Below, piece by piece: positions 17,928-61,370 of a stretch of DNA of 64,000 nucleotides. Location: contig JAYWIR010000032.1 of assembly GCA_036172245.1 (NCBI GenBank), positions 124,001 through 188,000 of the forward strand, written 5' to 3'. Origin of the DNA: Raillietiella orientalis. Taxonomy: Eukaryota. Below the pieces are notes generated by a model. It was not told the origin of the DNA. It made no database searches and saw only the letters and a list, made by a program, of their open reading frames with translations. The position numbers and the translations under genes are program-made. Each line of letters starts with the position of its first letter. Position 1 is the stretch's first letter.

Positions 17928-20873
17928 TTTTCTTACCGGGTCACGCCGAGACGTTTATTGATAAAAACTATCTGGAAAACAAATGTTTCCAGACAGCGAT
18001 TACAAATACTAAAAACGTAGATTCACCATTGGCACGCAGGCCTGATAAACTAAAGCACCTGAAAGAATGGGGGAAGGGGGGACTACAGACAAAAAAGAAC
18101 AGTCTAAATGGGAGGAATGGGGCAGGGAACTTTGGTGACGCTTTGCAGTCAAAAGAAAAAACAAAGCGGAAGCACCAAAGCACAACGGAGCGAATGAAAG
18201 GAGGGATGAGACAACAAAAATACAGTTTAAAGGAAATGAAGGTGGATCACGGGGTTGGTCGTTGGGAACCGTTGAGCATGCGGCGATGGATGCCAGTTAG
18301 CTCCTCCGTTGCGTTTTCAATCAAGTGTCGCCACCCAGCTGCCGACCTAATGAAGTCAACTGCCTTCCTGCTGACACAACATTGCAGCCCAGTGTTCTCC
18401 AGCACGTCTCGGATTGTGACGATGGCGCGGATGCAACCAACTGTCGAAATCAACGCAGCCGTCGAAAGTCCTCGCGCTTGGAAAAATCGTCGCTGCACTT
18501 CTTGGGCGGTGGCCCCCAGTGCATGGAGAGCTGCTGCACACCTCCGCCAGAGTTCCTGGAGTACACCCCAGTCCATAACAATGTGCGAGAACGACTCCAT
18601 CGCGGGGCAAAGTAGGGTACAGCCAGCCCAAAGGCAGCTCGTTGGCGCCGCTCGTTGTAGCGCAAGCGCCAGTGCAAGAAGAGCAAGACGTCTTGCTTCC
18701 ATACAAGGGAAAACACTGAACCGTCCAAACACCAGAGAGAGATTATAAGCTCCCCGGGACCAACACCAAGAGCATCTCCGCAACGAAGTAACCCCTTTGG
18801 TGTAGCACGAAGAGTGGCGTCATCCGCAATCTCGCTCTTGGCCCATTAGCCAATTAGTTTGGTTCTTTCTGCAATGATGCAGGAGAACTTTTACCTTGCA
18901 GGCTGACTACTGTCATTTCCAACCTTGAGGAAAGACAGCTCAGGCAAGGGGCGTGGCGGCCAAGGAGGAAAACTTCACCTCGTCCTCCATGACATCTTCA
19001 AGCGACCAAGTTTGGAATCCACGCAAGGGGCGAAGATCTTCACAGCTCATTTCTAAGAATGCACCCAAAGAATCCATGGATTCCTGCCGCCATGCATTAT
19101 AGTTCATTGGGCAGCAGGAAACCCACGTATTGGCTTTCAAGAGGGTGGCGATTTACCTCAACGGATAGCCAAACCCCTGTTTCTTGTGGCGCAAGACTGG
19201 CACCTAGGAAAGAAGTCCTTCACTGCCTGCACACCTCCTTAGGAGGATGCGCACAGGCGCACACAGGGGAGAGTCCATAGATCGGCACACAGTGAGAGCA
19301 TTCGGAACTGCACTTCCAGTCCGATTCTCTCCATTGTAAGAAGGCCAAGGCCAGCATCCGGAAGTGTAGCAGTGAGGTATTTCAGACGTATCCTCGATCG
19401 CGGCCTACCGCTGAGAGCGTTCCTTAACAGGGGTTTGCCCCCTTTTTGGCCGCGTAGGACGGGTCCAAGATTAATAAAAGGGGTCAGATGAGGGGGGCCA
19501 CGAAGGTGTTCCAAATAGCCGCAAGTTCCAGAAAGGTGGAATCCCCGTTAATGAACGGGCTGGCGACCAACTCTGCCTTAGGAAGGCAGTCCGACCACGC
19601 TTCGGCAGCGCCCAGGTCGCCCTACGGAACGCAAAGGTACCTGAAGTACCCTGCCCTAGGGATCCCCATGTAAATCCATTCGGACTGCTTCCCCCACGAC
19701 GCTCCTACAGAAACGACCCCGCTCTTTTTCTTGCTCACCCTCGAAGTTTAGGGAAATCTTCAAAACTGGACGTTGGGGTGGTCAAGTGGAGCAGAATCAG
19801 CAGCTCAAATGCATAGACAGTCACTGCAGGTGTTCCCGTGCAAGAGCTAAGCAGGTATTCCAGCATCAGCCTATAAGCCCTCAGCACCAAATCAAAGAAG
19901 ATGATTAAGAACAACGAGCTCCAACTGTCAACCTGCCTGTTGCCCCTGCGCACGGGAATAACGTACACGTGGCAGCCGCTGAATCAAATGCAAGTTAGCG
20001 CGTGAAGCCAGCATGCACGCAGGTAATTCAGGAGTTGCACCGGGAGACCCAGCCGTTATAAAAGCTCTAATAGGAGTCCTTGGTTTACGCAATCGAACGC
20101 CATGTGCTGGTCAACTGCGACCGCCAAGGCACCCGAAGTACCCTCCTGCCGCTTCTGTCGATACCGTGTGCCTTTGGCGGCGGCCTTGGACATGGATCTG
20201 CTTTGCTGCGCTACGCGTTCCTGCAGCAGCATCCAGGTTTGGGCAAACAGCAGGTTCGCGTCCATGGACCGCCTGAAAACACAGTAAGTCTGCTCCGGGC
20301 TCAGCAAGGACTGTGCGATTCTCCCTAGCCGCGCAACCCACATGTTGGAGAACAGCTTGACGTCCGAGTTCATCAGGGTGACCGGACTCCAGTTGCTTAG
20401 ATGGCGTCCCTCTCCACCTTTCGGCAGGGGACGCACCCACGCTAAGTGGAAGGAATTGGGGGAATCCCCAGAATCCCTTATCAACGACGAGAGGCGAGGC
20501 ACCAGGGGAACGAGCTTCCCCTTGAGCTTCGCGATGGCGGAGGAAATTTCCTCCGCCGTGAAGGACTCTTTGAGACGTGAGCGTTCCTCTTCTCTAACAA
20601 CGGGAGCATCCTGCCACAGAAGTATCTCCAATAAGATATTCATGGTAGGCGCTTCCGCGTATACCGAGGAGTAATTACTTTTTAATATGCGGCAAATACC
20701 GGATGGAGTCGAGAACTCTAGTTGTTTTTGTCGACTGAGCAAGATGCTGCATATTCTTAGTCTTGGCGCTTTCCCCTTGTATTCCGCAAGCCGGTTGATA
20801 TCAGCGAGTCTGGAAAAGGTGCTCGCCTGCAGGAAAGTCCCGCTGTTGGCGACCTCTGCTCCGCAGCCCACGG
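17928..20873 (-). mobile_element. LINE ORF2 and 3'UTR (subfamily 'Z', C-terminus QRPTP), interrupted at the EN-RT linker
   Basis: RT motifs LPKGGEGRHLSNWSPVTLMNSDVK and VDQHMAFD; 3' end rc AATAAACGTCTCGGCGTGACCCGGTAAGAAAA. Confidence 0.9.
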
Positions 20874-20874
20874 A

Positions 20875-22867
20875 AAGCGGACGTGTTTTTCCTTCGCTCC
20901 CGAAAGAGACGAAAGGAAGGCGTTTCTACTGAGTGTGGTGCTTTGTGCACATCGTTGGTGTCCGAAGGAAACCTTGCCTGAGGACACCACGGTAGAGGTA
21001 GGTGTGGGGAGGCTTGTCCACTCCAACAACCTACAGAGTCATGGGCATCCGCTCAAGAATCGCTCTCATTGCCCAAGGCGAGTATGTGGAGCACCATGGT
21101 ATCCGCGCCTAGAGCGGAAGCAATGGCCGAGAAGGCCGCTTACAAGGCAGTGGAGTATAAACCCTCGCTGGTCTATCAGGTAAGCAATTTTTTCGATTAG
21201 CGAACTGCACGCTGCTTTACGAAGGCGCTGCAGAACGCCAATGTTTTGCAGAACGTTCAGCGAGTCGGAATTGTCTGTAAAAGTCTTGGCGCAGAGTCTG
21301 ATGAGCACCCCGCTAAACTTGGATGGGCACTAGATTTCGCCAGTCACAATGGACCGCTCCGTAGTGGTCCATCTGAACAGCATCACCAACCGTATGACGC
21401 GGTCTGCGGTTGGTGATGAGTTGAAGAAATGCGGCAAGTGGCATGAGCTGTGGACTTAACCCACGAACCTTGAAGGCTACAATGGCCTTTTTGGGGACCA
21501 ACCGCTGCGCGTGTCACCGTGAAAAAAAACTGTGGTTTTCCCCACAAACTGGAGGTAGCGCCAGAGAGTGTGGACCTCTGGTAGGTGGGAAAGCCCCGGT
21601 ACTGCGGCTACTGTGATGCCGTGGGACACATTCGCAAGGGGTGTGCTAACATACAGTGCCATATGTGAAGGAAGAAGGGCCACGTTCGGCGTGTGTGCCC
21701 CAAGCGAACCACCCCGGTTCTCCCTGCCGCAAGAAAAGGGCAGGGGAAACGTGCATGGAAGATCGCAATACCTAAGGAGGAATGTGAACGGAGGAAGCTG
21801 CCAGCACTTCAACCTACGGGGTAAAAGTCGCAGGGAAAACCTTACCACGTAGCGGAAGGCGAAGAGGTCTGGAAGCTTGTAAAGGCCAAAATGCAGTAGA
21901 AGGTTCCAATCATGGAACTAGTAAGAACTAGTGTAAAACAGGCCATCACAAGGAAAAAACCCGTACCGCGCTCTAAAATTCTTCGTAAGTGCTCGGTGGT
22001 ACTTGAACGGATTGCCGTTCCTGAGGATGCCACTTGGGGCGACGAGACTCCTCTAGCCGTTTCCGCCGTGCTGGAGGTTCGTGACGGCGTTCCCTCTCTT
22101 TGCCAGAGGGTGAGCCGCGAGACGCGGGCGTCGAAAATGAGGAACCCGCGTTCGCGCAGGCGGCGGAGGAGCTCGCGGCAACGCGGGCGGAGCGCGAGAA
22201 CCCCTCGCGCAAGGCAGTGAGAAGGCCGGCTCCGGTGAAAAAGACGTCCAAAGGTGAGTACGAACTTGGGGTCGGAAGCTTATCCTTTTCTGCGGAGGCA
22301 CCCACCAGAAAGTCGTGACGCAAGTACCAGAAGCTCAGGAGGCGCCTCCCCTGCATCAACGAGGAGGAGAAGCCGGAAGGCAGCGGCAGCGTGGAATTTC
22401 AGGAGGAAGAATTCCAACGCACGGGAGCCGTGGAGAAGGTCACCACCATGGAGGAGGGTGAGCAGGGGGGCGATGTCCTCCTTGTTTTCGCCCATCATGC
22501 AAAGACCGCCCACATGGAAGAGGGCCAGCAGGTAGGCGCGACCAAACTTGGGGGTGCTCCGACCGACGCGCCAACACCCACGGAGGAGAGGGACCAGGTG
22601 CCCTCAGCACACCCCCTACTACACCAAGCGTCACGCACCAGCAGGTGGCCGACGTCGCACTACCACCTTTCCAGAATCCACACCTGGACACGCCAGTCGC
22701 CGTGGGATTCGCGCTGCCTGTTGGAATGTCAACAAGCTGCGCCACAATAGCAACAGGAGAGATACAGCCGACACCCTGCGTGAGCTCGACCTGTCCCTGC
22801 TGCAAGATATCCACGTGTCACCAAGGCGGACGTCCAGGAGATCGAGACGATCGCGAGGAGTGGGTTG
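20875..22867 (+). mobile_element. LINE 5' part (subfamily 'Y'): 5'UTR, ORF1 pseudogene and start of EN
   Basis: 5' motif aagcggacgtgtttttcc; zinc-knuckle remnant at ~21600; CWNVNKLR...LLQDIH (APE domains I-II). Confidence 0.9.
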
Positions 22868-24507
22868 TTTATCAACCGGGTGTGGCTGGACGTTCATTGG
22901 AAAACAATCCAAAAACAGCTTTTCCGGACAAAGTATACAGAGAAGACGGAGGGATCTTTGACAGGCAGGTCCGTATAACGATAGTCTGGAACCGAAAGGA
23001 GAGGATCACAAATATACTTCTATAAAAAATAAAAACAAAAATATGGAGAGCAGGGGATAGGGGTGAACGCAACAGAGTTCCTGAAGGGAAACATCCTGGT
23101 GCATTTCCAGCCATGCAACGTGTTCTGACGCCAGGATTCAAAGTTCGTTGGGCCGCAGGGGGATTCATCGCAGGGCTGCCAGGAGACGGTATAGCGGATT
23201 CATCCGGGAACCGTACCTTCTCGTGGCGAGCTCCTTATGAGTCCGATGCGACAGAAGTGCTTCCAGTGCAGCGCCGCAGGAGGAGATGCTCGGAAGCGCA
23301 CCACGGAGTGAACCATAGCTGGGCGCAAAGTGCCAGCTTGCAGAACTGTACTAGCAGTACGATCCGCCCGAGCGCCACCATGCCCAATCCTGCATCCCGC
23401 CGAGGAGCCGCCAATACCCTGAAGCAGATCCTGGAACTCCTCGGTCCCCACAAATCGTTTCGCAACAAGGGTTGCGCCAATAGCTTAGCCGAGTAAAAAG
23501 AAGGACAAACAAAAACGATGGGACGGATGAGAGTGGCAACGGAAATTTTCCACACGAAGGCCCGTTCTGACAGGAGGAACCTGCCGCTTAGGGACTGCCC
23601 TTACAAGGCCGCCAGTGCTCTCGGCACCCAGAGCACTCGCGGCCTTGTAAGGGCAGTCCAACCACGCCTTAACTGGACAGAAGGCGCCCAAGCGAACGCC
23701 AAGGTACTTCGAGCACCTGCCTGTAGGGACTCCCAGGTGCATACAGGCAGACTGCCCCTCACACGTAGAGGCAACGGGTACAACGGTTGATACCCTTCAA
23801 TTCACACTCAGGCACGCTCCCCGACGAATGAGCTCGAAGGAGCCTTCGAACAAGGACGCCAAGGCGCACATCGGTAGCAGTAGGAGAAGGTCGTCCGCAT
23901 CGGCGGCCACGGACGAAGTTCCCAGACAGGAGCTCGGCGGGATGGCCAGCGTCAGCCAGTACGCCCTCAGCACCAACTCAAAGAAAATGCTGAACAGCGG
24001 GGAGCTTAAGCTGTCTCCCTGCCTGATACCCCGCCGTATGGGAATGCCTTTCACGCTGCGCCTGCTAAAAGAGATACAGCATAACGCGTGGCGCCACCAG
24101 GAACGCAAGTAAGCGATGAGGTGCGTCGAGAGGTCTAGGCGTCCCAGAAGCTCCACAAGGAGGTCCTGGTTTACGCTGACGAACGCTTTGCAGAGATTGA
24201 CGGCGACCGCTAAGGCTTTCGGCGTTCCATCGCGCGCTGAACATCGCCGCTTGCCTTTGACAGCCGCGCTTTCGGCTACCTGGCTCTGCTGCTCCACGCG
24301 CTTCTGTAACTCGAACCATGTTCGCGCAAAGAAGACACATGCGTCCATGGACCGCCCCGGAACAGCATACGTCTGCTCCGGACTTACCAAGGACTCCGCG
24401 ATTCTATCCAGCCGCGCGAATAGCTTCGAGAACAACTTGACGTCCGAATTCACCAAGGTAATCGGATGCCAGTTACTGAGGTGGCGCCAATCCCCGCCTT
24501 TCGGCAA
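22868..24507 (-). mobile_element. Internally deleted LINE RT and 3' fragment
   Basis: PKGGDWRHLSNWHPITLVNSDVK, RRGIRQGDSLS and ADADDLL; 3' terminus rc CCCGGTTGATAAA. Confidence 0.88.
23592..23659. repeat. Near-perfect hairpin with 30-bp arms (one mismatch) and an 8-nt loop
   Basis: ggactgcccttacaaggccgccagtgctct-cggcaccc-agagcactcgcggccttgtaagggcagtcc. Confidence 0.9.
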
Positions 24508-27500
24508 GGACGCTCGCCCAGGTCGCTGCCCTCGCGGTTACAATGGGAACTTCGCCCGACAGCCCTCAGCTGCAGGCGTATGTAGCAAATGGCTACACGC
24601 CTGCACTCAGGTATAAGGTAAGTGTCCTTATGCCTGAGCGGGATGAGCGCGAGTTTGCCCAGGAACTCCAACGGATTGGAGTTCAGAAAGGCCAGCTGGA
24701 GTCCATCATGCCCATGAGTTTGTGCGGTTACTGGGAGGTTTCCAGTTAAGACGCTCTCCTTACGCAGCGTTTACTGCACACGCCGCTGCTTATTAATGGA
24801 CAGGAAATACGCTCTATCACCACGGATCAATCGTTTCTTATCCGCCTGAGTGGAGGGAGCAAGGGCCTTTCGGACCGCCAGGTCGTGAAGGCCGGCCCCA
24901 TCCGTTCACGCGCTTCGGAGGCTGCCAAATCCTGCTGAGGGTTTCGAAGACCACCACAGCGGGCTCGCGGAAGTGCGAGTGACGATAGAGGTTCTTCGGA
25001 CAATGCCCACGCGGCTGCAGGTGGATGGAATCACTGTCCGTCTGTGGTTCGCGGGGCAAACGCTTGTGTGCCCGGAATGCGGGCAGGACGGTCACCGCCT
25101 TACGAATTGTCGCTCGGCCGCTTGACGTTACTGCCACGAGCCTGGGCACACAAAAGAAACGTACTCGGAGCTCCTTTTAAAGAACGAAAAGCGAAAGAAC
25201 GAAGCACGTTTCGCATCGCGAAATAAACGCCGCGTATCGAGGAATACAAACCTGAAAACTTCCGAGAGCGTTGCGAAAACCGCGAGCGCGCATGAGGAGA
25301 AAACTCTTTGCCCCTCCACAGAAAAGGGAAGAAAAACACAAAAAAACTCGTCGCGGCGAAGCCTCAGGCTACGAAGCCGACGGAAGCTCGCGAAGATTGC
25401 AAACATTCACAGAGACCTCGCAGCGAATTTTTCAAAGCATAAGAAAGTGCGCCGCAGGGCAAGAAGCCTCCTACTGTCGGCATCGCGACCGCGAAGCTCC
25501 CTATCAAGGCCTCGGCAAGTGGCGAGGAATGCGGTCGCTCGCCCGATACGAGAAAATCGCACCCGCGGGCAAAGAAATCCGTGCCGGATAAACCTACCGC
25601 GGCCAAGGTGCACCAGGAGCCCAGTGCCGCGAAGAAACAGCCGGCAAACCCGCAGCCTTCGCGCACGCACGCAGCGCCTGCTGCGACCAAGGAAGAAACT
25701 GCCAGGGCGAGCACAATCGCTACAGCAGTGCTCCCAGCGGTCGCAAAGGCAACGCGCGAATCAACCGATCTGGAAGAGGCAGCGCCTCACGTGATCGCTA
25801 AGGGAGTCGCTAACGCCTGCGCGGAGGCAGCACTTCAAGAGGCAGCTAAGGCAGCGCCTCTTACATCCGCGGACGAAGCATAATCTCAGGATGGCAAAGA
25901 TAACTGCGACGCGAAGGAAGACGGCTCGATGCAAATAAGAAAGGAAATTAAAAAAAAAACCATCAAGGTCCTCGCAGCTCTTTGTGAAGGTGAGTGGGCG
26001 AAAGAAACCCGCGAAACCATCCCAAAAAAAGATTGCGATCCTTTCCTCCTGTGCAGTCGTCCTCTCGCGGATGAAGCGGGAAGCTGCTGCTGCGGCTAAA
26101 AGGAAGAATGTCTAAGCCGCGGTAACAGAAAGCGCTAAGAAACAGGCATCAAATGGTTTTTCCAATTCCGCGAAACTGAAGCAGCGCCTGGCAAGCGCTC
26201 GAATGTGGGATTCTGATCCAGAGTCTAACAGAATGAGCACACAGCGCGACACTCGCCCAAAACCGCACAATCGCCTCCCGAAGACCCGCAAGCGCGTGGT
26301 TCACGGAGAGGAACTGTTGCCGGGGAGCAAAGAGGAGGGAATAGGTCTCACCTCTGAGCTACCAACAACAAGCAGGGCGGCTTCCAATGGAGATGTCCAG
26401 TCTCCAAGATCTGCCGTTCTGTCTCGTGACTGCTCCCCGGACAATGCGAGAAACCAGTGCCAACCTTCCCAGCCTTAATGCAGGAAGTCACCTCTCTTCG
26501 TCGATTTAGCGTAGCCTGCTGGAACGTCAACGGGCTGCGCAGAGACGAAAAGAGGCGCGGCGTGTCAGACACCCTGCGACAATTCGACTTGGCAATCCTT
26601 CAGCAGATGCATCACATCTCCGACGCGGAGGTTGCCGAAATTTAACAGCGCGCGGGTGGCAACCTGTACTGGCGAGAGGGTTCTGCACAATCGTGCGGAG
26701 TCGGGTTTGTCGTTAATAGTACGATGGCAGGAGCGGTGAGCAGCGTTCGATTCGACCAGCAAGGGCGAATAGGCAAACTTGTACTCAAGTGTTCAGATTC
26801 AATCGACCACGTTTTGACGAACGTATGGGCGCCAAGCGGCTTTCATCGGCGCGCCGAAAGAATCGAGTTCTTCGATGTGCTAAAGAGCCAATGCTTCAGG
26901 AAATCCGGAGCCAGAATGGAACATTTCGTAGCAGCGGACTTCAACGTCCATCTGCTTTACAACGACACGAGGTCCCTGGCGGAACGGTCGTTGGTGGAAG
27001 AGGCATGCGCGTCGGTGCACGCGCGTAATTTGGAAGCCGGCGAGCCTGCACTGGAAAGGTGCGTGGATCACGTCTACTAAGATGAACACCTACTCTCACG
27101 AGTGGGAAGGAGAGGCAGGGTGCCGTCCACGTTATCGGACCATGATAGGCTGGAGTTCGAGCTACTCCCGCCGAGCTAGGGACCTCCAAACAATGTTTAG
27201 AGGATGCCGGCGGATTGGCTGAGTCATCCGGAAGCGGCGGAGCATCTTTGCCAGTTCCTTTGCGGCTTTGGCATCCGGGAACTCGCAGACTGGGACCATC
27301 TTAAAAGATCGGTTCGCGAGTTTTGCGACCGGTTCCCCCTGCACCTGCTACCACGCGGCTTCGGGGAAGGCGTGGCCAATAGCAGAGCATTTCTGCAAGC
27401 GCGCACCTTCTCGAGTCGTGCGGAAGTCCGGCAACTCGCCGAGTACAAGGCGAGGGCGGAGCACCAGGTCTGGCAGTCTGGAGTAGCTATTCTGCTCGAC

Positions 27501-30293: not shown

Positions 30294-30299
30294 TCCGCA

Positions 30300-31413: not shown

Positions 31414-31418
31414 TGGTT

Positions 31419-34400: not shown

Positions 34401-34507
34401 AGAAAAATCGGCAACCTAACTTTGGAACCGACAGCAGGGCAGGTAAGGAACTCCCGGGCAAGGAAGGTAGCCGTAGCGCTTGCAGTCGATCTCCATAAGG
34501 CGTTCGA
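31419..34507 (+). mobile_element. LINE subfamily 'Y': 5' end, ORF1, EN (deleted at ~33295) and RT up to DLHKAF
   Basis: 5' motif agacggacatgtttttcc; AAGYKSSLVYQVGNLFDG; SDH; KAPGEDG; stops at VDLHKAFD. Confidence 0.9.
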
Positions 34508-37274: not shown

Positions 37275-37355
37275 GCTGGCCGATCCTGACTGCCAGGCTT
37301 GCTTCTCGGCTCCCGCTTTGTATTCCGCCAGCCTGCGGATGTCGGGGGTCCTGGG

Positions 37356-42877: not shown

Positions 42878-44179
42878 TCTGTGGAGAGAGGACGTGCTTT
42901 TCCTGCGCTCCGCCTGCGTGGCAAGGCGAGTGATTTTTTCTTGAGTGGTTTGTGCGTGCACATCGTCGGTGTCCGATGGCAGCGTTGCCAGAGGACAGCG
43001 CGATCGATGTAGGCGTGGAAGAGGCTTGTTCGTCCCTAAGCCCACTGGATAAGGGGCATCCGCCCCGGAATCGTCCCCGGCGACACCGAGGTCATGGAGC
43101 GCCATGGTGGCCGCGCTTAGCTTGGAAGCCATGGCCGAGATGGAAGCCTACAACAAAGCGGCGTATAAACCCTCGCTAGTCTACAAGGTAGGCAACCTTT
43201 TCGATGGGCGAACTGCACGCGCCTTTACGAAGGCGCTGCAGAACGCCAATATCTTCGAAAAAGATCTTCACGGCCTCTGCGTCCTCAGCGGCGGGCAGCG
43301 GGTCGAGGTGGTATGCAAAGATATCACCTTGGCCCGACGCCTGATCACCGACCCGCTGATCGTTGATGGTCGGAAGATCTTGCCGGTGACGATGGACCGC
43401 TCGGTGGTGGTCCGTCTCATTGGGATCTCCAGTCGCATGACTAGGTCAGCGGTTCGTGAACAGTTGCAAAAGCACGTAGAAGTGCACGCGTTGTGGCCGA
43501 AGTCCACGATTTGCCAAGGATACAATAGCCTTTTCGGAGGTTAAGCTGCGGTGCAAAAAAGGATGGTGCGCTTCCCCACGAGCTGAAGGTCTATCAAGAA
43601 GCGGTGGACCTCCAGAACGTAGGGAGACCCCAATTTTGTGGCTACTGCAATGCAGTAGAGCATCTACGAAAAAGGTGCCCGAACATTGTGTGCCACCTAT
43701 GCGGGGAAAAGGGTCACATTCGGCGCGTGTGATCCAAGCGCCCCACCCCGGTGCCCCCTGCCGCCAAAAAGGCACAGGGAAAACGTGGAAAGCTGGTAGA
43801 AAGACCAGCTCGCGAAAATGGCCATTCCCAACTGCCAGCCTCCCTTCCTCCCGTACAGACGTCGGAGGAAAGAGCTCCCGTGAACGCGGAAATGGAGGAG
43901 AGTTGGCAGCTGGTTCAGGCCAGGGAAGAAAAAAAAAGAAAGTGATGCCAGAAGAAAAGTCGGAGAAGAAAACTGCCAACAACAAGAAAAAAGCTGCGCC
44001 GCTTTCAAGAAAAAAACAACTCCGCGAATGCTCGGTGGCACTAAAACGCTTAGCCGTTCCTGCCGAGGCCGCCCGCGGAAATGTTCAGCAAACAGCTGAT
44101 ACGGACGCGATGAATACTCGCGTGGACGAGCCCATTCTACGTTTAGAGGGTGAGACGCGAGACTCGCGCGCCGACAGCC

Positions 44180-44295
44180 AGGACGCCGCGCTCGATAAAG
44201 TCGCGGAGGAGCCCGCGGCAACGGTCGCCGCTGGCGAAGACGCGGCCTTCGAGAAAGCGGCGGAGGAGCTCGCAGCAACGCTCGCCGAGCGCGAA
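44180..44295 (+). repeat. In-frame 57-bp tandem duplication in the ORF1 tail
   Basis: DAALDKVAEEPAATVAAGE-DAAFEKAAEELAATLAERE; single-copy in the related ORF1 at ~22140-22200. Confidence 0.7.
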
Positions 44296-47248
44296 ACCCC
44301 GTCGCGCAAGGGCGTACGCAGGTCGGCTCCGAAGAAGGCCCCCGCAGGTGAGTGCGACCAGGGGGCCGGAAGCGGATCCTCATCCTCGGAAGCACCCCCA
44401 GGAAGTCGGGACGCAAGTCCCAGAAACCCAGAAGGCGCCTCCCCTCCACCAGCGAGGAGGAGAAGGCGGAAGGAAGCGGCAGCGTGGGAATCCCGGAGGG
44501 GGAACACCCACGTTCGCAAGTTGTCGAGTCGGCCACCCCCATGGAGGAGGGTGAGCAGGGGGCTGAAGTCCTCCGTGCAGTCGCGGAATTAGAGCAGCCG
44601 GAACCCATGGAGGAGGGCGAACAGGTAGGCGCGACTCCACCTGCGGGTGATCCGGCCGACGCGCCGGCAATGATGGAGGAGGAGGAACAGGTGCCTTCAG
44701 AACCTGTCCCTCCTCCCCCGCCACCTAGCTTCCCGCCCCAGCAGGTGGCGGACGCCGCATCGCCGTTTTCCCAGGACTAACACCTGGGCTCGCCAGTCGC
44801 CTTCGGATTCGCGCGGCCTGTTGGAACGTCAACGGGCTGCGCGACGACGGCAACAGGCGAGATACGGCCGACACCCTGCGTGAGCTCGACCTGGCACTGC
44901 TGCAGGAGATCCACGTGATCACCGCGGCAGACGCCCAGGAGATCGAGACGATCGCGGGGGGTCGGTTGTATTGGCAATGCGGCCTTCGAAACACCTGCGG
45001 GGTCGCTTTCTTCGTGAAGCCGGCAATCGACGCTGCCGTAAAGGGCGTGCGGTTTGATGACGACGGTCGGATCGGTCAGCTGATTCTTAGCTGGTCCGAG
45101 TCGATTGACCTAATCGTCACAAACGTGTATGGCCCCAGCAGCAAACAGTGGTACCGCGACCGCACCAGGCTGTTGGAAACCCTGATGCGCGACTGGCTGG
45201 CGGATACCAATGTGCGAAAGGCTCACCTGATAGCAAAAGATTCCAATCGAGTGCGGACGTGTTCTTCTTCGCTCTCGTCTCCGTGCTTTCATCCGCTTCA
45301 TCTTGTCGTCGTACATTTTGACGACGATGTCGACCCAACCCGAAGCTACTGAAGTTGGAGGAACAGCATCCGGATCTGCAATCGCGGAACCGACGGCCGC
45401 CTCCACTTCGTCTTTCTCGCCAATAGAGAGGAGGTTTGCTGACGTTGCTGCCACAGAAGTCGTCAAAGGGAAACCACTCGACGAGTCGGAGTTGCGGACA
45501 TACGTAGCCCAAGGGTATGAACCTGCTCTCTGATATAAGGTGAGTGGTTTTCTTTCTGCGCGCGACGGGAATCAGTTCAACGATGAACTGACCCGTGTTG
45601 GCGTGCGGGAGGAAAACCTCCTCGCCATTATGCCCGTAAAGGATATGGGCTATTCCAAGGTGCGTTGCAAAGACGCTGCACTTGTGCAACGCTTGCTGCG
45701 CACCCCGTTGTCGATCCGTGGCCAGAAGGTCTTCCCGGCCGCCATGGACGACTCATTTGAGGCGGAGATTTTCGACATCGAGTCGGAAATCTCGGATATT
45801 GATATTCGGAACGCGTTGGCGAAATTCGCCACGGTTTATGCGCAGTGGAGGGTGCGTAGCAACCTCAAGGACTTCCCGTCCATACACAGCGGAGTCGCTG
45901 GAGTCCGGCTTACAATGCCGGACCGCCGTCTGCTGTGAACCAAACATTACGTGAAAGACACGGTCGTTCACCTGTGGTTCGTGGGCAAAGTAAGAACGTG
46001 CGAGTAATGCGGGAAGGAGGGCCATTGTTTGGATAAATGCCCCTCTGTAAAATGCCGTTATTGCAAACTATCCGGGCACCAATTGAAAAATTGCCCGGAT
46101 CTTTTGCGAAAAAAGGCAGCCGCGGAGCTCCATCTTAAAAAACAAAGCGCGGATCAAAAGAAAAAATCTTCGAAAAACCTGGAGACCCCACGGCAGAAAT
46201 TCCGAAAAAACGCGAGGCGCAATGTCGCCCCAAAGCAGCAGGAAACCTCGCACGCGAAGCCCTGCGCGCCCCCTCTCGCGGCAGTGGAGCCGCAAAAGAA
46301 AGGGTGCGGGGAATCCGGGACAATGGTATGTCCCCCTGGGCGCAATAGCTGTCCTTCCCAAGCACTCCCAACTCTTTCGGAGTTCGAGCAACCGGCGGAG
46401 ACGTCAATGGACAACGGCGGTAAGGACACTTGCAGTACCGTCAGATCCATTCCTTCACCTCCTGCAGTGGCTGAGAAGCCCAAATCAGGTAAGAAGGGTT
46501 GTGCCGTGTCGACCTCGAAAGTCGGCAAAACAAATTCCGCGTCGCGATCCAAGACCGCGAAAGCGGAGAAAAATCTCACGCCGTCGCAGTCGAAGAGCAA
46601 GCTCTCGACTGGCGCGGATGCCATGCCAACGAAGGGATTAAAAGCCCTCCCGAAGGCAGCGTCCATGACGAGCGTGTCGGAGCCATCGAAACTGCTCCCG
46701 TTTAAAGACGCGGAGGGCTTCAAAGATGGCAATGGAACACAATCTCCATTTACGGCGCCACGCGAAGTGAGGAACCGTAATGAAGTAAAGAAGACTTCCG
46801 CAAAGGTCCCTCGTGCAACTGCGCGTGAGCACGCTGAAAACGTGCGCGCCGGGAAAGCAGCCGTCACCAAAAGCGATGCTCTGGAGACGGAAAAAGACAA
46901 CAGGACAGCTGTCAATCCAGCAGAACCTGTCACTACTTCGCGGAAGGCCGAAACTCGATCCACCATGCGCCGGTCGGACACCGAAATGGATGCCGTTCCG
47001 ATCACCGAGACGAGGACAACTCGATCGAAAGCGTGTGCGCGCCGATTGAAAGTAGGCAGCCAGGCAACGCTCGCCGCGAAGCCACGCGAAGTCTCCACGA
47101 ATCCCGACGGGGTTAAGCCTGGCGTGGAGGCATTACATGCATGCAGCACGACGGAGGACGGTGGCGACCGTCCCCTCCAGCCAGTCGTGCTGCTCGCCGT
47201 CTGCTCGCCGGATAAAGCGAGCAAAAAGCCGCCACCTTCCCAGCAGTA

Positions 47249-50337: not shown

Positions 50338-51228
50338 TCAAGCGGAGTCGGGCCCTCCCGCTGCCCCAAAGGGCGATACGGAGGAGTTCCTTCGTCCGCT
50401 TTTTGATCCTCTCTGTGGGGGGCAAACAAAAAGCAGGGAACGGAGGAGAGGAGCCGCGAACATGTTCCAAACCGCGGCCCGTTCAGGCAGAAAAAACCTG
50501 CCGCCTCGGAACGGGCCGATAGCCGTCTCTACTTTTTGAAGGCAGCCGGACCACGCTTCCGCAGAGCAGTAGTCCCCTAACGGCACATCAAGGTACTTGA
50601 AGTACCTCACCGTGGGGATCCCCAAACGGACCCAGTCCTGCTGCCCTGGCCACGACGCACCAACTGGCATCACGGACAACTTCGCCCTGTTCACCGTAAG
50701 CCCGGTTCCTCGATTCAGCAGGTCGAAGAACTTCTCGACCGCCGAAGCCGGGGTGGACATAGGGAGCAGTAGCAGGAGGTCGTCCGCATATGCTGAAACC
50801 GCAGGCGTTCCGGCGCATTCATGTGGCAGTTGCGGCAGAGTTTCCCTGTACGCTTTCAGTACCAACTCAAAGTTGATACTGAAAAGCAAGGGGCTCAGGC
50901 TGTCTCCTTGCCGGATCCCACGTCGCACCAACACGCCGTGAACAGTATGCCCGCTGAAAGTAACATTGATTAGCGCATCGCGCCAGCTAGAGCGCAGATA
51001 GGCCAATAATGAGGCCGGGAAGCCCAAGCGTTCCAAAAGCTCCAGCAGGAGATTCTCGTCGACGCTGTCGAATGGTTTACGCAAGTCGACAGCGACCGCA
51101 GGTGCTCCCTCCCCCATCCGACCATCCGTCGCATGACTGACGGACTCACCGGAATTCTCGGTGCGCATCAAGCCCCTTGCGTGTTGGAGCTCTAGCCAGG
51201 TGGAAGCGTGCAACAGGTTCGCCTCCAT
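50338..51228 (-). pseudogene. ORF2 RT fragment with an intact YADD
   Basis: DLRKPFDSV, GIRQGDSLSPLLF, SAYADDLL and FKYLDVPLG. Confidence 0.92.
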
Positions 51229-51250
51229 GCTTCGCCCAGGATTCCCGGCA

Positions 51251-52968: not shown

Positions 52969-55951
52969 TGCGGCCTGATCGACCTCCACCACACACGAAG
53001 CCTACACCTAGGGACGGTTTCCGGCACGAGGAGCACCGAGGAAACACGTCCGCTCTAGCCGACGTAAAGCTTTCGACTGCGTAAACCAGAAACTGCTTTT
53101 GGAGCTTATGTAACGCCTTGGGTTCCCGGCTCAACTCCTGCTGTATTTGCGCGCGTGCTGGCGCCACGCGCTAATTCGCATCACTTTTAGCGGCTGCCGC
53201 GTGTATGGTATTCTTGTTCGTAGGGGCATCCGACATTGCGACAGCTTAAGCCCGTTGCTCTTCAGATTCTTCTTTGAGTTCGTGCTAAGAGCATACACGC
53301 TGACGCTGTCTCACTTGCCAAGCTCCTGACCGGGAACGCCTGCCGTGGCCGCCTACGCTTATAACCTGCTTCTTCTGCTCCCCATGTTCACCCCGGCGTC
53401 CAGTGTCGAGGATTTCTTCGACCTGATTCTTCGAAGAGCGGGCGTGAGCGTGAACAGAGAGAAGAGCGTGGTCGTTCCTGTGGGTACGTCGTGGGAGGGG
53501 CAGTCCGACTGGATCCGCCTGGGGATCCCCACGGGCGGGTACTTTAAGTACCTTGGCGTTTTGTTGGGCGCTTTCGACGCAGCCGAAGCGTGGGCGGACT
53601 GTCTTCAGAATGCAGAGTTGGCCATCAGCCCGTTCTTTAACGGTAAGTTTACCTTCCATGAAACACCATTGTGGAAGCCATTGAAGCGACCATTTGAAAC
53701 ACCTTTGTGGCCCCCCTCCTCCGTCCCCTGTTTTTTGTTTTGGACCCTTCCTATGCGGCGAAACAGCGGGCTAAACGCCTGCTCAGGCACGCTCTTTGAG
53801 GTCCGGCGAGATCCAGGATCCGCCTTAAAGATTTGTTAGCTTCACTTCGGGATGCTGGTTTGGGTATCCTGACGATGGAGCGAATCGGACTGCAGGTGCA
53901 GTTCCGACTGCTGGCACTGTGTGCCCAGCTATGGACATCTCCCCTGTGTGTGTCAGCCCGCATTCTCCTGCGGAGATGCGCCGGCAGCGGAGAATTTCTC
54001 TCGCTTTTAACGGGCACTCAATACAGGAAGTGGGGTTTCGGGTTTTCATTGCGGCAGTGGACCGCACTTCTGGAAGCTCAATCATGGATCTCCTGCCGCC
54101 AAATGAACTTTGAAGCTTGGCGGCAGGAGTCCGTTGAATCCTAAGCGGCGTTCCAAGGAATACGCCCTGAAGATCTTCGCCCCCTTCGCCAATTTTTTCC
54201 ACGATCCTTGGAAGAAGTACTGCAGGACAAGGTGAAGTTTTCTACCCTGGCTGCCACGCCTCTTGCCGCAGCGCTGTCTGCCCTCAGGGCAAGAAACGAC
54301 AGTTACCAACAGGCAAGGTGGGAGGATTCCTCCACGATAGCGGGAAAAACAAAACCACTTGGCGCCTGGAAGACGAATGAGTTGGCAGACGCCGCCACTC
54401 CTCGTGTTACTGCAAAGGGACTCCTCCGGTAAGCAGAAGAACTTGCTGTCACCGCCGAAGAACTTGTAGTCCCTCCACAGTGTATTGACAGTTCGCTGCT
54501 CCCTCTTGCTTAGAAACAAGCCGTGCTGGTTTTCGTTCACTGGGGTTTTCAGTGCAACGAGCGTTGGCATCGTGACTCCGGGGGACTTGCGTCTGCAAAC
54601 TGCGTTCGGTGCGGATCGATGGAATTGATTCCGCACCTACTTCTAGACTGCGGTCTCCTACAAGGACTGTGGCGTAGGCTGGCAACAGCACTAATGCATC
54701 CCGTGGACACCGCAAGAGACTTGCTCCGACGATTCTTCACGCCGTGCGGGCTGTCACTAAGCGCAAGAATTGCAACCGTCGGTTGCATACGCGTGATAGT
54801 TTCCGTCCACCAGGCGTTGGTAATCAACGGAGAGCACCAAGAGGTAATCAGCAAAGCATCCTTCTACATTAGAGCATCCGCTAGATGGCCTCATTTGACA
54901 GAAGAGACAAAGAGGAATCTCGCCGCAATGCACCGCCGGTTTACACACGCTCAGCAGCGGCCAACCCGGTGATCATTGCAATACCCTCCATAAACTAATT
55001 TTTTATTTTCTTTTCACACCCGCGTCCCCATAGGCTCCGGAACATTTTAGGTGCCCATCGTATAAATCCCCTTGAGTACGGAGCCTATCCAAAAACCCGT
55101 TACCCCTCCCTCCAGTTTTTGATTTTTGTTTGTTTCCCTTCATTCCTTCCACGCTTCGAGCGGTTTGTTTACCAGGCCTGCGTGCCGGTAATTTTTCCAT
55201 GTTCTCTGTCGTTTTGTTGGTTGAAAACATTCTCCCTAACCAGTTTATAATTATTAATAAACGCCCCGGCGTAACCGATTGATAAATTTCAATCTCCGCC
55301 TGCTAACAGGTGAGCCCGAAACACAAGAGTACGCGATGATCGAGTTGTTCGCCGCCATGAGTGCGCGCAACTTGTTCGCGGGTGACAGGGTAATGGTCCG
55401 CAGCATCGACCACGTCTTCCTCGACGCTGACCTGTGTTCACGGGTCCGCAAACGGGAGAAGATTGCCTCCACGCAGTCGGACCATTCCCGGCTAATTTTC
55501 GAGAAGCGGTCTCGCGACAATGGACCGCTATCCAGGGACTGGCGTCTCCCCGAGGTCTGGAAGCGCCTCTCAGGTGCAAAGGTACACCTTCGCGAATACC
55601 TGAGAAGCGTCACGCTCCGGAATCCCCAGGACTGGGACCTTTTTAAGGAATCGGTCCGCAAGTTCTACGAGCTGTTCCCCCTGGATCGCCTGCCCTCCCG
55701 GATTTGGCGAGGGTGCTCGCAGCCATCGAGCCTATTTAAAGGTTCGTCGTTACGAGAGAACCTTTAATGTCCGTCGCTTGGCCGAGTACCGCGCTGGGGC
55801 CGAACGCCAAGCCTGGCAAGCCGGGTCGGCCAGCCTGCTAAGCGATCAGGGTCGGGAATGTTCGTCCCCGGCGTAGGTACGGCATCTCGTGCGAAGTTTT
55901 TATTCATGCCTCTACGCAAGGACGCCTCCGTAACAAGATGCCTTTCGGCGG

Positions 55952-56932
55952 TTGCTCCAGGATGGTGCCCCTGCAATAGGGGAAGAGGAGTCGGTAAGCC
56001 TCGACGAGCCTTTCACTACCGGCGAAATTCTCGCCGGTATCAAAAGGCTCAAGAGGCGTAAGGCGTCAGGGGAGGACGGCTTGCCCTCGGAGTTCTTTCA
56101 GCGCTTCGCGGAAGAGCTTGCCCCCTTGCTGCTCGTGTTGACAAGGCTGATCCGAGACGAAGGCGATGTTCCCGCCTCGTTTCGATCAGCCAGAGTGAGG
56201 CTCCTTCCGAAAGGGGGGGACCTCAGGAAATTGCACAACTGGCGTCCGATCACCATCGTGAACACGGACGCCAAGTTGCTAGCAGGGCTATATGCTTCGC
56301 GTTTGGGGCAGGTGGCAGAGTCCATAATTAGCCCGGAGCAGACCTATCCTGTTCCCGGGCGAAGTATGGACGCCAACCTCTTCTTCGCAAGAACGTGGAT
56401 GCACCTGCAAAGGAGAGAAAAGAAAGGGAAAGGGAAAATCGGCAACTCCACATTGAGTCCGCCAGCGGGGCTGAGAAGGGACCCCGGGGCGGGGAAGGGG
56501 GCCCTAGCGATCGCAGTCGATCTCCATAAGGCGTTCGACTGTGTAGACCAGGAGCTCCTCTTAGAGCTCCTGGGTCGTATGGGCTTCCCACTCTCCTTGA
56601 TATGCTACCTGCAACCTTGCTGGCTGAATGCGATGATTACCGTCTCTTTCAGCGGGCACAAGGTGTCTGGCGTGCCAATGCGGCTGGGTATCAGGCAGGG
56701 CGATAGCTTGAGTCCCCTGCTCATCAGCACCTACTTTGAGTTGATGCTGAGAGCCCACATGGTGACTTTGGCCCCCTTGCCGAGCTCGTGCCCCGGCACG
56801 CCCGCCGTAAGTGTTTATGCCGAAGATCTTCTGCTCCTGTTACCTATGTCCATCCCGGCGAAGGCGGTCGGAGATTTCTTCGACCTGCTCAACCGCGGGA
56901 CCGGACTGCAGGTGAACAGCGCGAAGTCGTAA
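55952..56932 (+). pseudogene. ORF2 RT domain of Y
   Basis: KASGEDG, NWRPITIVNTDAK, DLHKAFDCV, GIRQGDSLSP and YAED (mutated YADD). Confidence 0.92.
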
Positions 56933-57569
56933 GTGGTGCCAGTTGGTGCGGCGTGAGCAGGGCAGCAGGACTGGGTCCGTTTGGGGATTCCCACGGGGAG
57001 GTACATCAAGTACCTTGGTGTGCCGTTGTGGGACTTCTCCCCTGCGGAAGCGTGGTCCAGCTGCCACCAAATAGTCGAGACGGCGATCGGCCCGTTCCTG
57101 GAAGGCAAGTTTCACTTGCCGGAACGGGCCGCGGTTTGGAACGCCTTTGCGGCCCCCATCCTCCGCCCCTTGCTTTTTGTTTGCCCTGCCCCAGGAGTTG
57201 TTAAAATAGGACGTAAGACCTCCTCCGCATCGTCCTTTGGGGCAAGGGGAGGCCCCGATTCCCTTTGAAGGACCTTTGCGCTTCCCGACTTAATGGCGGA
57301 CTTAACCTCCTGACGCTGGAGCGCCTGGAGAAACAGCTGCGATATAATACCCTCGCCATCGCAGTGAAGATGTGGAGCATCCCGTGGTGCATTCCGGCTC
57401 GCCTCTTCGCCAGTCGTGTGTCCCGGTGCGAGGGACTCGCGTCTTTTCTTCTGTGCCCCGGCCGGAAGATCAGAAGATGGCATGGGCGCATGGCATTGTT
57501 GGTCATAAAGAACAGGTTTGCTGCCCCGCCAACTCCTCCGCCTGGCTGGAGGAGAACATCGGAACGTGG

Positions 57570-58406
57570 GCAGTGGTGAATCAGAAAATCCACATAACGT
57601 GGAATCGTCTCCGATGCAGCCATTACGCCCGCTGCATTCTGAGGAATCTCCTGGAGAATCCAGCTAGGAGCACGTGGGCAGAGACAACTTGCCTGGATAC
57701 GGCACTGCTTTTCCTGAGAAGGGTGCTTCACAGCAGTCGGACGTCAAGGTGGCAAGCCTCCTTCTTCATCGAGGGACATGAGAAGAGAATGAGCGGCTGG
57801 AACATGGGTCAAGTGGCGGACGCCACGACCCCGAGCGCCCAGCTGCGAGGACTAAGAAGATGGGGAGAGCTGCTGGCCATCCCTATGGATGTGCTGAAGT
57901 GGCCTCCGCTTCTTCAGGAATCCAGGATCCTGCCCCTTAAGTGGAAAGAGTCGGCGTTGCTGTTGTTGCATTCGGGTTTACCCTGCAACGCACGCCGCTC
58001 CCACTGGACAAGAGGAGTTGTGGATCCTGCGTGTGTCAGGTGCGGAGAGCGGGAATCGCTCTCCCACCTTATTGTGGACTATGCTGCCCTTCGTCCCCTT
58101 TGGGAACGGTTTAAGACGATCCTCGGTCTCCCAACGGGCAGTTCCCCTAGAGACGTTCTTCGGCCCCTCTTCGTGAAGGACGCCCTGCAGCCAGCCGCAG
58201 CCCTTGCAGCCTTGTGCTGCGTCCGAGGCATCGTGGCGGAATGCAGCGACACCAACAAGGAAGGAGTGGGTCAACACGCGAGTGATGTCATCCCATATGC
58301 CCAACGCTTTTTGCGGAGAGCTGCTGGATGGCCCAAACTGGGGAATATACGGATGGACCTCGAGGGCTTCCTTCAACGGATGGGCCCTCCTCTCAGCGAA
58401 CAGTGA
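57570..58406 (+). pseudogene. ORF2 C-terminal region with a zf-RVT-like Cys/His motif
   Basis: LLHSGLPCNARR...CVRCGERESLSHLIVDY. Start is approximate. Confidence 0.8.
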
Positions 58407-58618
58407 TCCCTTCCCTGCCCTCCAACCTATTTGGTTCGTTTCCGTTTTTGTTTTTATTTTTGTTTTTCCCCATCCCCTTTCGCTGCCGGGGAGTGCCACG
58501 CCGGGCTGCGTCCCAGCGTCCCGGTAGGTCCCGTGTATAAGGCCATGAGCGGGCCTGGTACCGCGATTGTAGAGTTTGTTATGATTAATAAACGCCTCGG
58601 GCGTATCCGGGTGGCAAC

Positions 58619-58715
58619 TTTAAATCCCCGGGACAGGCGGTGCAAAGGGAAATCCTCGCAGAACTCGCGGACCGAGACCTTCATGAGGACCCAATCATCG
58701 AGATTGCGGAGCGTC
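58619..58715 (-). mobile_element. 97-bp sliver of host element X trapped between two insertions
   Basis: Translates as TLRNLDDWVLMKVSVREFCEDFPLHRLSRGF, the sequence expected immediately upstream of RGFGEEARNERAY at 42877. Confidence 0.88.
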
Positions 58716-58735
58716 GAGCGGACGTGTCTTTTCGT
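58716..58735 (+). promoter_or_regulatory. Conserved LINE 5'-terminal motif GAGCGGACGTG plus pyrimidine tract, a putative internal promoter element (also at 10826, 20875, 31419, 42886, 45249 and 53055 on -)
   Basis: The same motif sits at the 5' junction of seven otherwise divergent elements. Promoter function is inferred. Confidence 0.6.
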
Positions 58736-61338
58736 TGCTCCTGAGTTTCATTTCCGTTGGTGCTTGTGCGTGGTGTGGGTGGAGGATTAGGCAGCAATGC
58801 CTGATACCACCACCGATGAGCGGGGGCGATGACCTCATTGCCCCCGGAGGAGATTTAGGTGGAGGCTCCCGCATCAGTGGAGGCTCCCGCCAGCACTGAT
58901 GCGCCCCCGGCCCTACCCAGGACTTGGAACGCCGTGGCTGCAGCACCTACGCCAGCGGCTATGGCGGAAATGCGCGCTTACCTGGAGGAGGGGTATAACC
59001 CACCCCTTCTATATAAGGTAGGAAGTTTATATTCTCCCGAGAACGCGCGCGCCTTTTCGCAGGCGATGCGCGTACTCGGTGTACAAAAACAGGAGCTTCT
59101 GGCTATGTCCTTCAGAAGCGGGGTTCAATTTGTGGAAGTTATCTGCAAGGAGGCAACTCTTGCGCAGAGACTTCTGCGAACCCCCGTAATTATGGGCAGC
59201 CGGAGGCTTCTCCCAATTACTGAAGACCGGTCGGTGATCATTCACCTGGCCGGTATCACATTGCGGATGACGAAGGAGGCCGTCCGGAACGAATTAGAAA
59301 AATTTGCAACTGTCCACGCGCTGTGGGGAAAGCCTACTCTTTTTGTCCATTACGACGGGGTGCTTGGCGGCCTGGGTTCAGCGCGAGTGACGGTTCGCTA
59401 GGGATGTGAGTTTCCCCACAAACTCAACGTCAACGGTGAATCCGTTGACGTGTGGTACGTGGGGAAACCCAAGTTTTGCGGCTGCTTCAGCAGCTTTGCT
59501 CACCTTAAAATGAGGTGTCCTAGCGTGCAGTACCAGCAATGCAAACAAGCGGGGCACACCCGTCTGGTGTGCTCCCAAAACACAGTCCGCGTCGTGTCCG
59601 CGAAAAACGCGAGAAAGCGCGCGGCAAAAAAGAGAAAGAAGCTGTCAGCTCGTACTGCTGCTAAGGAGGTCACATCCTCCACCAAGGCGAAGGCCAGCCC
59701 CGAGACCCCACCGAAAAACGCCGAGAAGGTCGAGGGCGAGGGTCAAGAGCCAGGGTGGCAGAAGATCGATCCCAAGAACAACTCCCATAAGAAGGGAAAG
59801 AACGTGGCGAAACGGAGCGAAACCGCTCTGCGCCGCGAAAAAATTAAAAGCTGCTGTGTCGTTGTAGAGCGGATTCCCGCCATCGACGAATGCGGCGCTA
59901 AAGAACTCGCTGCTGCCCCTGCTCAACCCTCCGTTGACAAAGTCAACAAGCAGGGGAGCGAGGCGGCGGCGTCCGTCATCGAGCCCACGCTCGATGACGT
60001 CGCCTTCGAGTGCGCCGCGTAGGAGCTGGCTGCCTCGTTGCAGCCGGTTGCCCCCAAGGCTGGCAAGAAGGCCGTCAGGCGTCCGGCTTCCCCTCAGGAG
60101 TCGGCCACTTCCGACCCCGAGGTGAAGGCCGGAAACACAGCATCCATCTCCGCGGCACCCCGCAAAAAGGAAGGACGAAAGTCCACAATGCACCGGAAGA
60201 TCATCTCTCTCGACGAAGGGGAAGAGATGGCTTCCGGTAGCGAGGGTGCCATGAGCGTGGGAAACTCCCGGGACCCGTCGCCCGAGAGAATTACACTCTC
60301 GGACACGGAGGGTATGGTGAGGATGGAGGCTGAACAGGTACCCCATGCGCCTGAAGAGGCCTCCGTCCTCGTTCCGATGGTCCTCGTACCGATGGACCTT
60401 TCCTACACCTGCCCCGCGGCAGGTGCCGCGACGCCACTTTCCCAGCCATAATGCCGGGAATCGCCTCTCGCCGTCGCCTTCTGATCGCCTGTTGGAACGT
60501 GAACGGGCTAAGCGACGACGGCAAGAGGCGTGACGTGGCCGCCACCCTGGCATCCTTTTACCTGGTGCTGCTGCAGGAGATCCACGTGATCTCCGCAGAT
60601 CAAGCCCGGGAGATCGAACGGATCTCGGGTGGGCGGCTGTTGTGGCGTTGCGGCACCGCGAAATCAAGCGGTGTCGCCTTCCTGCTCCGACCAGCCATCG
60701 AGGCCGCAATAAAGGACGTTCGGTCTGATGACGCCGGTCGCGTCGGTCAGGTGACTCTCAGCTGGTCCGACTCAATCGACCTGGTCGTCACCAAGCTGTA
60801 CGCTCCTAGCGGTAAGGATGCGTTGAGGGCGAAGGCAAGAAGAGAATTCTACCTTTCCCGCGGACGCGATTGGCTTATCGAAGCAGGTGTTCGCAAAGCG
60901 CACCTGATCGCGGGTGATTTCAATCTGCGCCTGCTTTCAGATGAGCCGGATACACTGAACGACCGCGTCAACGAGTTGTGCGCAGAAATGAACACGCGCA
61001 ACTTGTTGGCCGGGGACACGGCCATGAAAAGCAGCATCGATCACGAGTACCTTAATCAGCACCTATGCTCTCGGGTGGGCAGGCGCGGCAAGGTACCATC
61101 CGAGTTGTCGGACCATGGTCGGATGATGTTCGAAGTGCGTCCGCGCGACAAGGGCCCCCCCTCGTCAGCGTGGCGTCTGTCAGAGGACTGGCTGAAGTTT
61201 CCCGACGCGGCGGAGCACCTCCGCGCGTTTATTCGGAGCTTCAGGATGCAGACACTTCAGAACTGGGACCGCCTCAAGCGGTCGGTCGAAGAGTTCTGCG
61301 ACCAGTTCCCCCTGCATCGCCTACCTGAGGGATTTGGG
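58716..61338 (+). mobile_element. LINE 'V' 5' half (5'UTR, ORF1 58797-60451, EN 60451-61338), interrupted at EGF^G
   Basis: 5' gagcggacgtgtcttttc; knuckles; TAATG at 60449; WNVNG, QEIH, LYAP, AGDFN, IDH and SDH. Confidence 0.93.
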
Positions 61339-61370
61339 GTTTCCACCCGGGTACGCCCGGGGCGTTTATT
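61339..61370 (-). other. Conserved LINE 3'-terminal module AATAAACG plus stem-loop (also at 58587, 55256 and 30265 on +; 48965, 39953, 34508, 22868, 17928 and 11936 on -)
   Basis: AATAAACGC-CCCGGG-CGTA-CCCGGG-TGGAAAC, with variants at every 3' junction. Confidence 0.8.

Follow-up and report, generated by a model that had tools for sequence, protein, structure and literature searches.

Can a long interspersed nuclear element (LINE) make the coding sequence of its own siblings a fixed landing site? Site-specific LINEs are known for ribosomal DNA (rDNA), telomeres, small RNA genes, microsatellites and DNA transposons. The locus that raises the question is a 64,000-nucleotide (nt) stretch of Raillietiella orientalis DNA (contig JAYWIR010000032.1, positions 124,001 to 188,000; the window), which holds three copies of a LINE that we call Y. 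The copies Y1, Y2 and Y3 occupy the same site, in the same orientation and with the same geometry, in three independent host LINEs, and one of them retains a complete target duplication. We conclude that Y is probably a site-specific LINE of the L1/Tx1 kind with an APE-type endonuclease, whose target is the conserved linker ...FPLHRLxxGFG in open reading frame 2 (ORF2) of sibling LINEs.

The window is filled from ~10.6 kb to its end by a GC-rich (~51-61%) pile of decayed non-LTR (long terminal repeat) retrotransposons, and the DNA to the left of this LINE island is richer in AT. In the copies, ORF1 bears zinc knuckles and ORF2 encodes an APE-type endonuclease (EN) and a reverse transcriptase (RT); copies in the window match PF03372 (Exo_endo_phos, E 1.5e-14) in the EN part and PF00078 (RVT_1, E 3.7e-16) in the RT part. 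Y1 itself carries both regions, as befits a target-specific APE-type LINE. The solved structure that comes closest to the RT is human L1 ORF2p (E 1e-39), R2 reaching only 1e-17. We placed the copies by tblastn on a single ORF2 coordinate (EN 1-333, RT 335-860, C-terminal domain 861-1214) and read the element termini directly from the letters; self-blast breakpoint counts were too fuzzy to define junctions.

Y1 supplies both ends of the insertion. Its halves flank a second element, W (45248-55284), which splits Y1 at EN amino acid (aa) ~180 with its own duplication TTYCAATC and is in turn split by M; the halves are therefore one insertion, and the 5′-type and 3′-type junctions belong to one family. 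At the 5′ junction, the element starts at 42883 and is preceded by five extra bases (42878-42882) and the host copy TCCAAATCCCC (42867-42877). At the 3′ junction, the element end ...GGTGGCAAC is reached at 58618 and the host TTTAAATCCCC comes next (58619-58629). The resulting target duplication is 11 bp long and alike at 9 of 11 positions (GGGGATTTGGA vs GGGGATTTAAA), Y1 being the sole Y copy with both junctions. Y2 starts at 20872, preceded by two extra bases and CTCCGCAGCCC (20859-20869), and Y3, on the minus strand, meets its host at 61339/61340, abutting GGATTTGGG(G); both single junctions fit the geometry of the Y1 duplication. The four junction strings given in an initial annotation of this DNA (58619, 61339, 42886 and 20875) are all present where it had placed them. 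The 3′ parts of Y1 and Y3 are 78% identical over 529 nt, and the 5′ parts of Y1 and Y2 are 68-77% identical over 1.6 kb. The two copies of the Y1 duplication (58619-58629 and 42867-42877) differ by GG to AA, which fits old, decaying copies.

Translation of the host flanks and their alignment to five uninterrupted copies place all junctions at the same G-F-G codons of the EN-RT linker; the two 3′ junctions differ by no more than 1 nt and the two 5′ junctions by no more than 2 nt. Y1, Y2 and Y3 (3/3) are antisense to their hosts, at the same nucleotide position within 1-2 nt. The host of Y3 (host3, plus strand) translates to ...FPLHRLPEGFG and then breaks; that of Y1 (host2, minus strand) reads ...FPLHRLSRGFK to the right of the insert and resumes as GFGEE... 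to its left; that of Y2 (hostH, minus strand) continues, from the aligned position onwards, with a decayed GLRS.... The chance that two further junctions fall within ±2 nt of a first, given a 5.5-kb target and two orientations, is P ~2e-7, or by a rough estimate ~2e-6 once the 10 triples among the five Y-group junctions are allowed for. Read in the sense of the host, the reverse complement of the Y 3′ end follows immediately on the host bases upstream of the break. Under target-primed reverse transcription, this arrangement places the first nick after GGN TTY GGR in the sense strand of the host. Judged from the sequence, this nick would fall just after the GFG codons rather than between F and G, and the duplication would span GFG. 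The initial annotation had written the break as GF^G and was thus right about the site and wrong about the exact position. Its remark that the target is not catalytic and yet conserved agrees with our alignment, in which all eight copies that carry the linker region have the motif.

An RT tree and a query-anchored protein alignment assign the three hosts to different lineages; host3, whose RT is absent from the window, was placed by its EN and inter-ORF nucleotides. In the tree, an E group (E38 and M) has support 1.0, a Y group (Y1, Y3, Y4, host2 and, on a long, poorly supported branch, F) has 0.99, and the two join in an E+Y clade with 0.995, outside which lie the K-type elements K, W, J and hostH. 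HostH is nearest to W (55%) and host2 sits within the Y group, the RTs of the two hosts being 49% identical. Host3 is E-type by its EN (66% to E38 vs 48-55% to the others), and its inter-ORF region shares 75-76% nucleotide identity with E38 and M. Antisense insertion at the linker in three different hosts, as initially annotated, is therefore borne out, the hosts being K-type, Y-group and E-type.

The target itself combines a variable core with a well-conserved neighbour. The 10-nt core reads GGATTTGGGG in host3, GGATTTGGAG in host2 and GGCTGCGGAG in hostH. A consensus YCCRAAnCC had been proposed from the same four flanks to which it was fitted; it describes those flanks in part, and the hostH core fits it poorly. 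In a codon-anchored scan of nucleotide conservation, the five-codon FPLHR window, which lies 8 codons upstream of GFG, comes 6th among 1076, GFG itself being only average. The FPLHRL block beside the nick is thus a plausible part of the recognition site. The linker motif looks lineage-specific and is not seen in distant relatives: its regular expression found a match in just 1 of 161 proteins, and there at another position. The second Gly codon is GGR in all three hit hosts and in the three other free copies; the free Y-group sites in Y1 and Y4 (GGATTTGGCG) instead carry the synonymous GGC. The GGC codon may reflect self-protection, for which n is far too small to say.

Y is not alone in returning to one place. 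Twelve insertions in the window have a resolved context, seven at three recurrent sites and five as singletons. The recurrent sites are used by Y at GFG (three times), by K-type elements at the EN motif DFN (twice) and by E-type elements at the RT motif KAFD (twice), a perfect match of lineage to site with a chance of 1/210. At DFN (aa ~179), the K-type elements lie in sense orientation, W in Y1 (45240-45250, 55285-55300) and hostH in F (17915-17929), with the 3′ flanks TTTCAATCTCC and TTTCAACGTTCG. At KAFD, within RT motif A (DLHKAFD), the E-type elements are antisense, M in W (48995-49030, 53040-53075) and E38 in Y4 (34500-34530); both flanks read ATCGAACGCCTT, and the M junctions repeat ~12 bases covering KAFD. 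Three of the singletons are the J 3′ end, antisense in the Y2 EN at aa 87 (22860-22900) with a tail ...CCGGTTGATAAA like those of W and F; the F 3′ end near 16186; and the full-length host3 5′ end, antisense in the host2 EN at aa ~290 (58700-58735). The host3 flank, ATCGAGATTGCGGAGCGTC, is loosely like the KAFD target and may mark an off-target insertion. The other two singletons belong to the Y group and are taken up below.

These features suggest how Y would insert. The Y endonuclease would nick the sense strand of the host immediately 3′ of the GFG codons (GGN TTY GGR^). Y RNA would then be reverse-transcribed from the freed 3′-OH as primer, starting at the conserved 3′ end of the RNA, which lacks poly(A). 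Priming from a sense-strand nick would always leave Y antisense to its host. The other strand would be cut 10-11 nt upstream, giving a duplication that spans GFG, and full-length copies would be joined with a few untemplated bases. We infer that the specificity comes from the EN and that its recognition site takes in the FPLHRL block.

Could the coincidence have arisen otherwise? Five of the 12 resolved contexts (host2, Y4, J, F and host3) are singletons elsewhere, as might be expected of random nesting in a repeat graveyard; against three junctions within ±2 nt and in one orientation (P ~2e-6), and with two more sites recurring in the same window, a chance coincidence is so improbable as to be negligible. 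The three junctions would also collapse into a single event if one host-plus-insert composite had been copied by segmental duplication, and the Y copies are old and diverged enough (68-78% alike) that old duplicates could look similar. The host phylogeny contradicts this account, the cores of hostH and host2 differ (GGCTGCGGAG vs GGATTTGGAG), the extra bases at the 5′ junctions number five in one case and two in the other, and W lies inside Y1 where J lies inside Y2; three host lineages with differing cores and junction fillers in effect exclude the duplication of one composite, which we rate as very improbable. A general hot spot, such as a fragile or exposed DNA structure open to any LINE of the group, would fit the position of the GFG site beside a nucleotide block that is among the best conserved in ORF2, and the homologous 5′ and 3′ ends of all lineages mean that the machinery may be common. 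All three inserts at the site are Y-type, however, and K-type and E-type elements use the two other recurrent sites in the one-in-210 match of lineage to site, so we give the hot spot little credence.

Several observations weigh against strict site specificity of Y. The window offers only three events (n=3), its Y copies are decayed, and the metagenome, related-locus and protein searches described below found no extra Y flanks. Two Y-group elements lie off the GFG site, the host2 3′ end at 39953, at C-terminal aa ~1089 of a plus-strand copy, and the Y4 5′ end at 31413, in sense orientation in the ORF1-ORF2 spacer of K2, so that only three of five Y-group junction contexts are at GFG. The RT tree interleaves host2 and Y4 with Y1 and Y3; the specificity is therefore not assignable to a clean clade. 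The hostH core departs from GGATTTGGRG at 4/10 positions, and five site copies stand unoccupied, the perfect one in E38 among them. The initial annotation had assigned the site to a 'Y/U' subfamily, which holds for Y1, Y2 and Y3; with Y4 and host2 elsewhere, 'Y/U' as a whole is not strictly specific in the window. In the C-terminal domain and 3′ untranslated region, Y1 and Y3 are mutually the closest copies (66% aa, 78% nt). A further alternative accepts that Y is site-specific and denies that the EN alone makes the choice: a read-through transcript might anneal to the nicked target, or another ORF2 or ORF1 domain might read FPLHRL. Read-through transcripts of R1 in Bombyx carry downstream target sequence and anneal to the nicked target. 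The conserved 3′ end without poly(A) would suit such a route, and so would the contrast between a nick core that tolerates 4/10 changes and a much better conserved block upstream of it. Inspected by eye, the Y 3′ tail shows no complementarity to the target end, and we consider this alternative unlikely, if worth keeping in mind. On balance, we retain Y as a LINE whose own endonuclease probably selects the GFG site.

The three recurrent sites invite a broader reading, in which sister LINE lineages form a guild whose endonucleases would each be specialised on a different conserved coding motif of the others (K-type on DFN in sense, Y on GFG in antisense and E-type on KAFD in antisense). Such mutual parasitism would provide safe, self-renewing landing sites and build LINE-only islands without harm to host genes. 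We consider this guild about as likely as not.

How does Y compare with known systems? According to PMC4494074, target choice of non-LTR elements is set mainly by the endonuclease, and Tx1-clade LINEs target other transposons: Tx1 inserts in the piggyBac-type Tx1D of Xenopus, Tx1-Mar in Mariner-N4_AMi and Tx1-9_AMi in Harbinger elements. By analogy, Y appears to resemble these elements most. It shares with them an APE-type EN, ORF1 and ORF2, a fixed place in another mobile element and a specificity attributed to the EN (PMC4494074). Unlike the Tx1-clade targets described there, the Y target is a coding motif of sibling LINEs, including Y's own group, and not a DNA transposon, RNA gene or microsatellite; several sister lineages here each sit on a different motif, and the likeness to the Tx1 clade is one of function.

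Two other groups offer partial parallels. Zepp and ZeppL form clusters of L1-type LINEs, one nested cluster per chromosome, in the green algae Coccomyxa, Chlorella and Chlamydomonas (PMC3446292, PMC8226300), and like our window these are LINE-only islands, GC-rich relative to their flanks, that arise by nested insertion that 'targets existing copies'. In Zepp arrays, 5′-truncated 3′ ends predominate (PMC8226300), whereas at least six elements here keep a conserved 5′ end; moreover, Y lacks poly(A) and is inserted at defined codons in a fixed orientation. Membership in Zepp/ZeppL, first considered from the GC content, agrees with the nested cluster and was set aside in view of the many full-length copies. 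R1, TRAS and SART are APE-type site-specific LINEs of insects that insert in 28S rDNA and telomeric repeats (PMC1919474, PMC7265360). With them Y has in common exact insertion, fixed in orientation, in a conserved sequence present in many copies, along with full-length copies and, as proposed for Y, an EN that cleaves the two strands at set distances. They belong to the R1 clade and target repeats of the host genome, whereas Y targets a retrotransposon gene and its nearest solved RT is L1 ORF2p. A literature search, which left out most subscription journals and the primary Zepp papers, found no description of a coding motif of sibling LINEs as a LINE target. If our reading holds, Y follows a distinct survival strategy, with a target that is multicopy, harmless to the host and kept constant by selection on active siblings. 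It would also give a concrete, testable mechanism for self-building LINE-only islands such as the algal Zepp clusters, and a naturally occurring set of closely related endonucleases that differ in their DNA specificity, of use in studies on retargeting APE-type EN.

Outside the window, relatives are few. A metagenome scan with the Y 3′-end pattern gave 0 matches, and an RT-based search for related loci returned 24 loci of only 22-33% identity, of no use for junctions. The E38 RT as a protein query found one close relative (P0001, 67%) and one distant match; protein searches with the Y1 C-terminal domain and with the ORF across the host3/Y3 junction found no match. When P0001 was searched against 1.8 billion representatives, the best matches beyond itself and a 132-aa fragment at 70% were at most 38% identical, and the names of its ten top matches were uninformative. 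This LINE group stands apart in public protein space. The name 'Transposon TX1' is carried by one Atlas cluster (rank 22, score 0.88), which is a lead only and not a confirmed Tx1 placement. In sequencing run X1, 0.08 of words were found, and its contigs on 42200-62000 are for the most part 85-95% alike, as paralogues would be; where the window and these related contigs differ, the changes are mostly transitions, which fits old, decaying copies. None of the X1 records listed bridges the three GFG junctions by at least 31 letters, and they lend support neither way. One X1 contig has a J-in-Y2-like joint (44969 joined to 55285, on opposite strands) and may be the same locus.

Table 1. Positions in the window of the three Y insertions, the flanking host segments and the unoccupied GFG sites.
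Feature	Position	Strand	Content
Y1 5′ half	42883..45247	+	Conserved 5′ end, ORF1, EN to aa ~181; split at EN aa ~180 by W
Y1 3′ half	55285..58618	+	EN from aa 179, own uninterrupted GFG site (55700-55709), RT, C-terminal domain, 3′ end ...CCGGGTGGCAAC without poly(A)
Y2	20872..22868	+	Conserved 5′ end, ORF1, EN to aa ~87; cut at 22869 by J 3′ end; 3′ part outside window
Y3	61339..64000	-	3′ end ...CCGGGTGGAAAC at 61339-61350, C-terminal domain, RT; runs off window
Host2, downstream of GFG site	39953..42882	-	Linker, RT, C-terminal domain, Y-type 3′ tail; target duplication copy 42867-42877, extra bases 42878-42882
Host2, upstream of GFG site	58619..58715	-	EN aa ~290-323, ...FPLHRLSRGFK; second target duplication copy 58619-58629; cut at ~58716 by host3 5′ end
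HostH	17929..20871	-	Linker just after GFG, RT, C-terminal domain, 3′ end; K-type, nearest W; host copy GGGCTGCGGAG at 20859-20869
Host3	58716..61338	+	E-type; 5′ end, ORF1, EN to ...FPLHRLPEGFG; broken after GGATTTGGG(G)
Free GFG site in K	27357..27366	+	Reads GGCTTCGGGG
Free GFG site in E38	37400-37409	-	Perfect GGATTTGGGG
Free GFG site in W	48126-48135		
Free GFG site in Y4	33669-33678		
Free GFG site in Y1	55700-55709		

The termini on which these coordinates rest are shared widely. The 5′ end ...GCGGACGTGYTTTTC is homologous across all lineages; a search for it gave six matches against 1.2 expected, five of which are element 5′ ends (Y1, Y2, Y4, W and host3), and the M 5′ end, read directly, is also of this common type. 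The 3′ end is likewise homologous in all lineages and without poly(A), reading AATAAACGCCCCGGCGTAACCGG... and then a short lineage-specific tail, which in the Y type is ...CCGGGTGGMAAC. The common ends can be seen, for example, at 20872-20895, 42883-42905 and 58716-58735 (5′) and at 58585-58618 (3′). At least six copies retain a full-length 5′ end, an unusual feature in L1-like elements. No conserved 3′ hairpin was found in 10 aligned 3′ ends, for which RNAalifold predicted no pairs.

The left 10 kb of the window holds no convincing ORFs. Within the island, the K 3′ flank at 30292 begins TTCAATCC and resembles the DFN flanks, which makes it a candidate only. On the plus strand, a short K-type ORF1 start (38858-38930) stands directly before a Y-group RT/C-terminal piece (38961-39966), a candidate continuation of Y4. 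In M, an internal deletion at 51240-51312 fuses EN aa ~27 to RT aa ~535.

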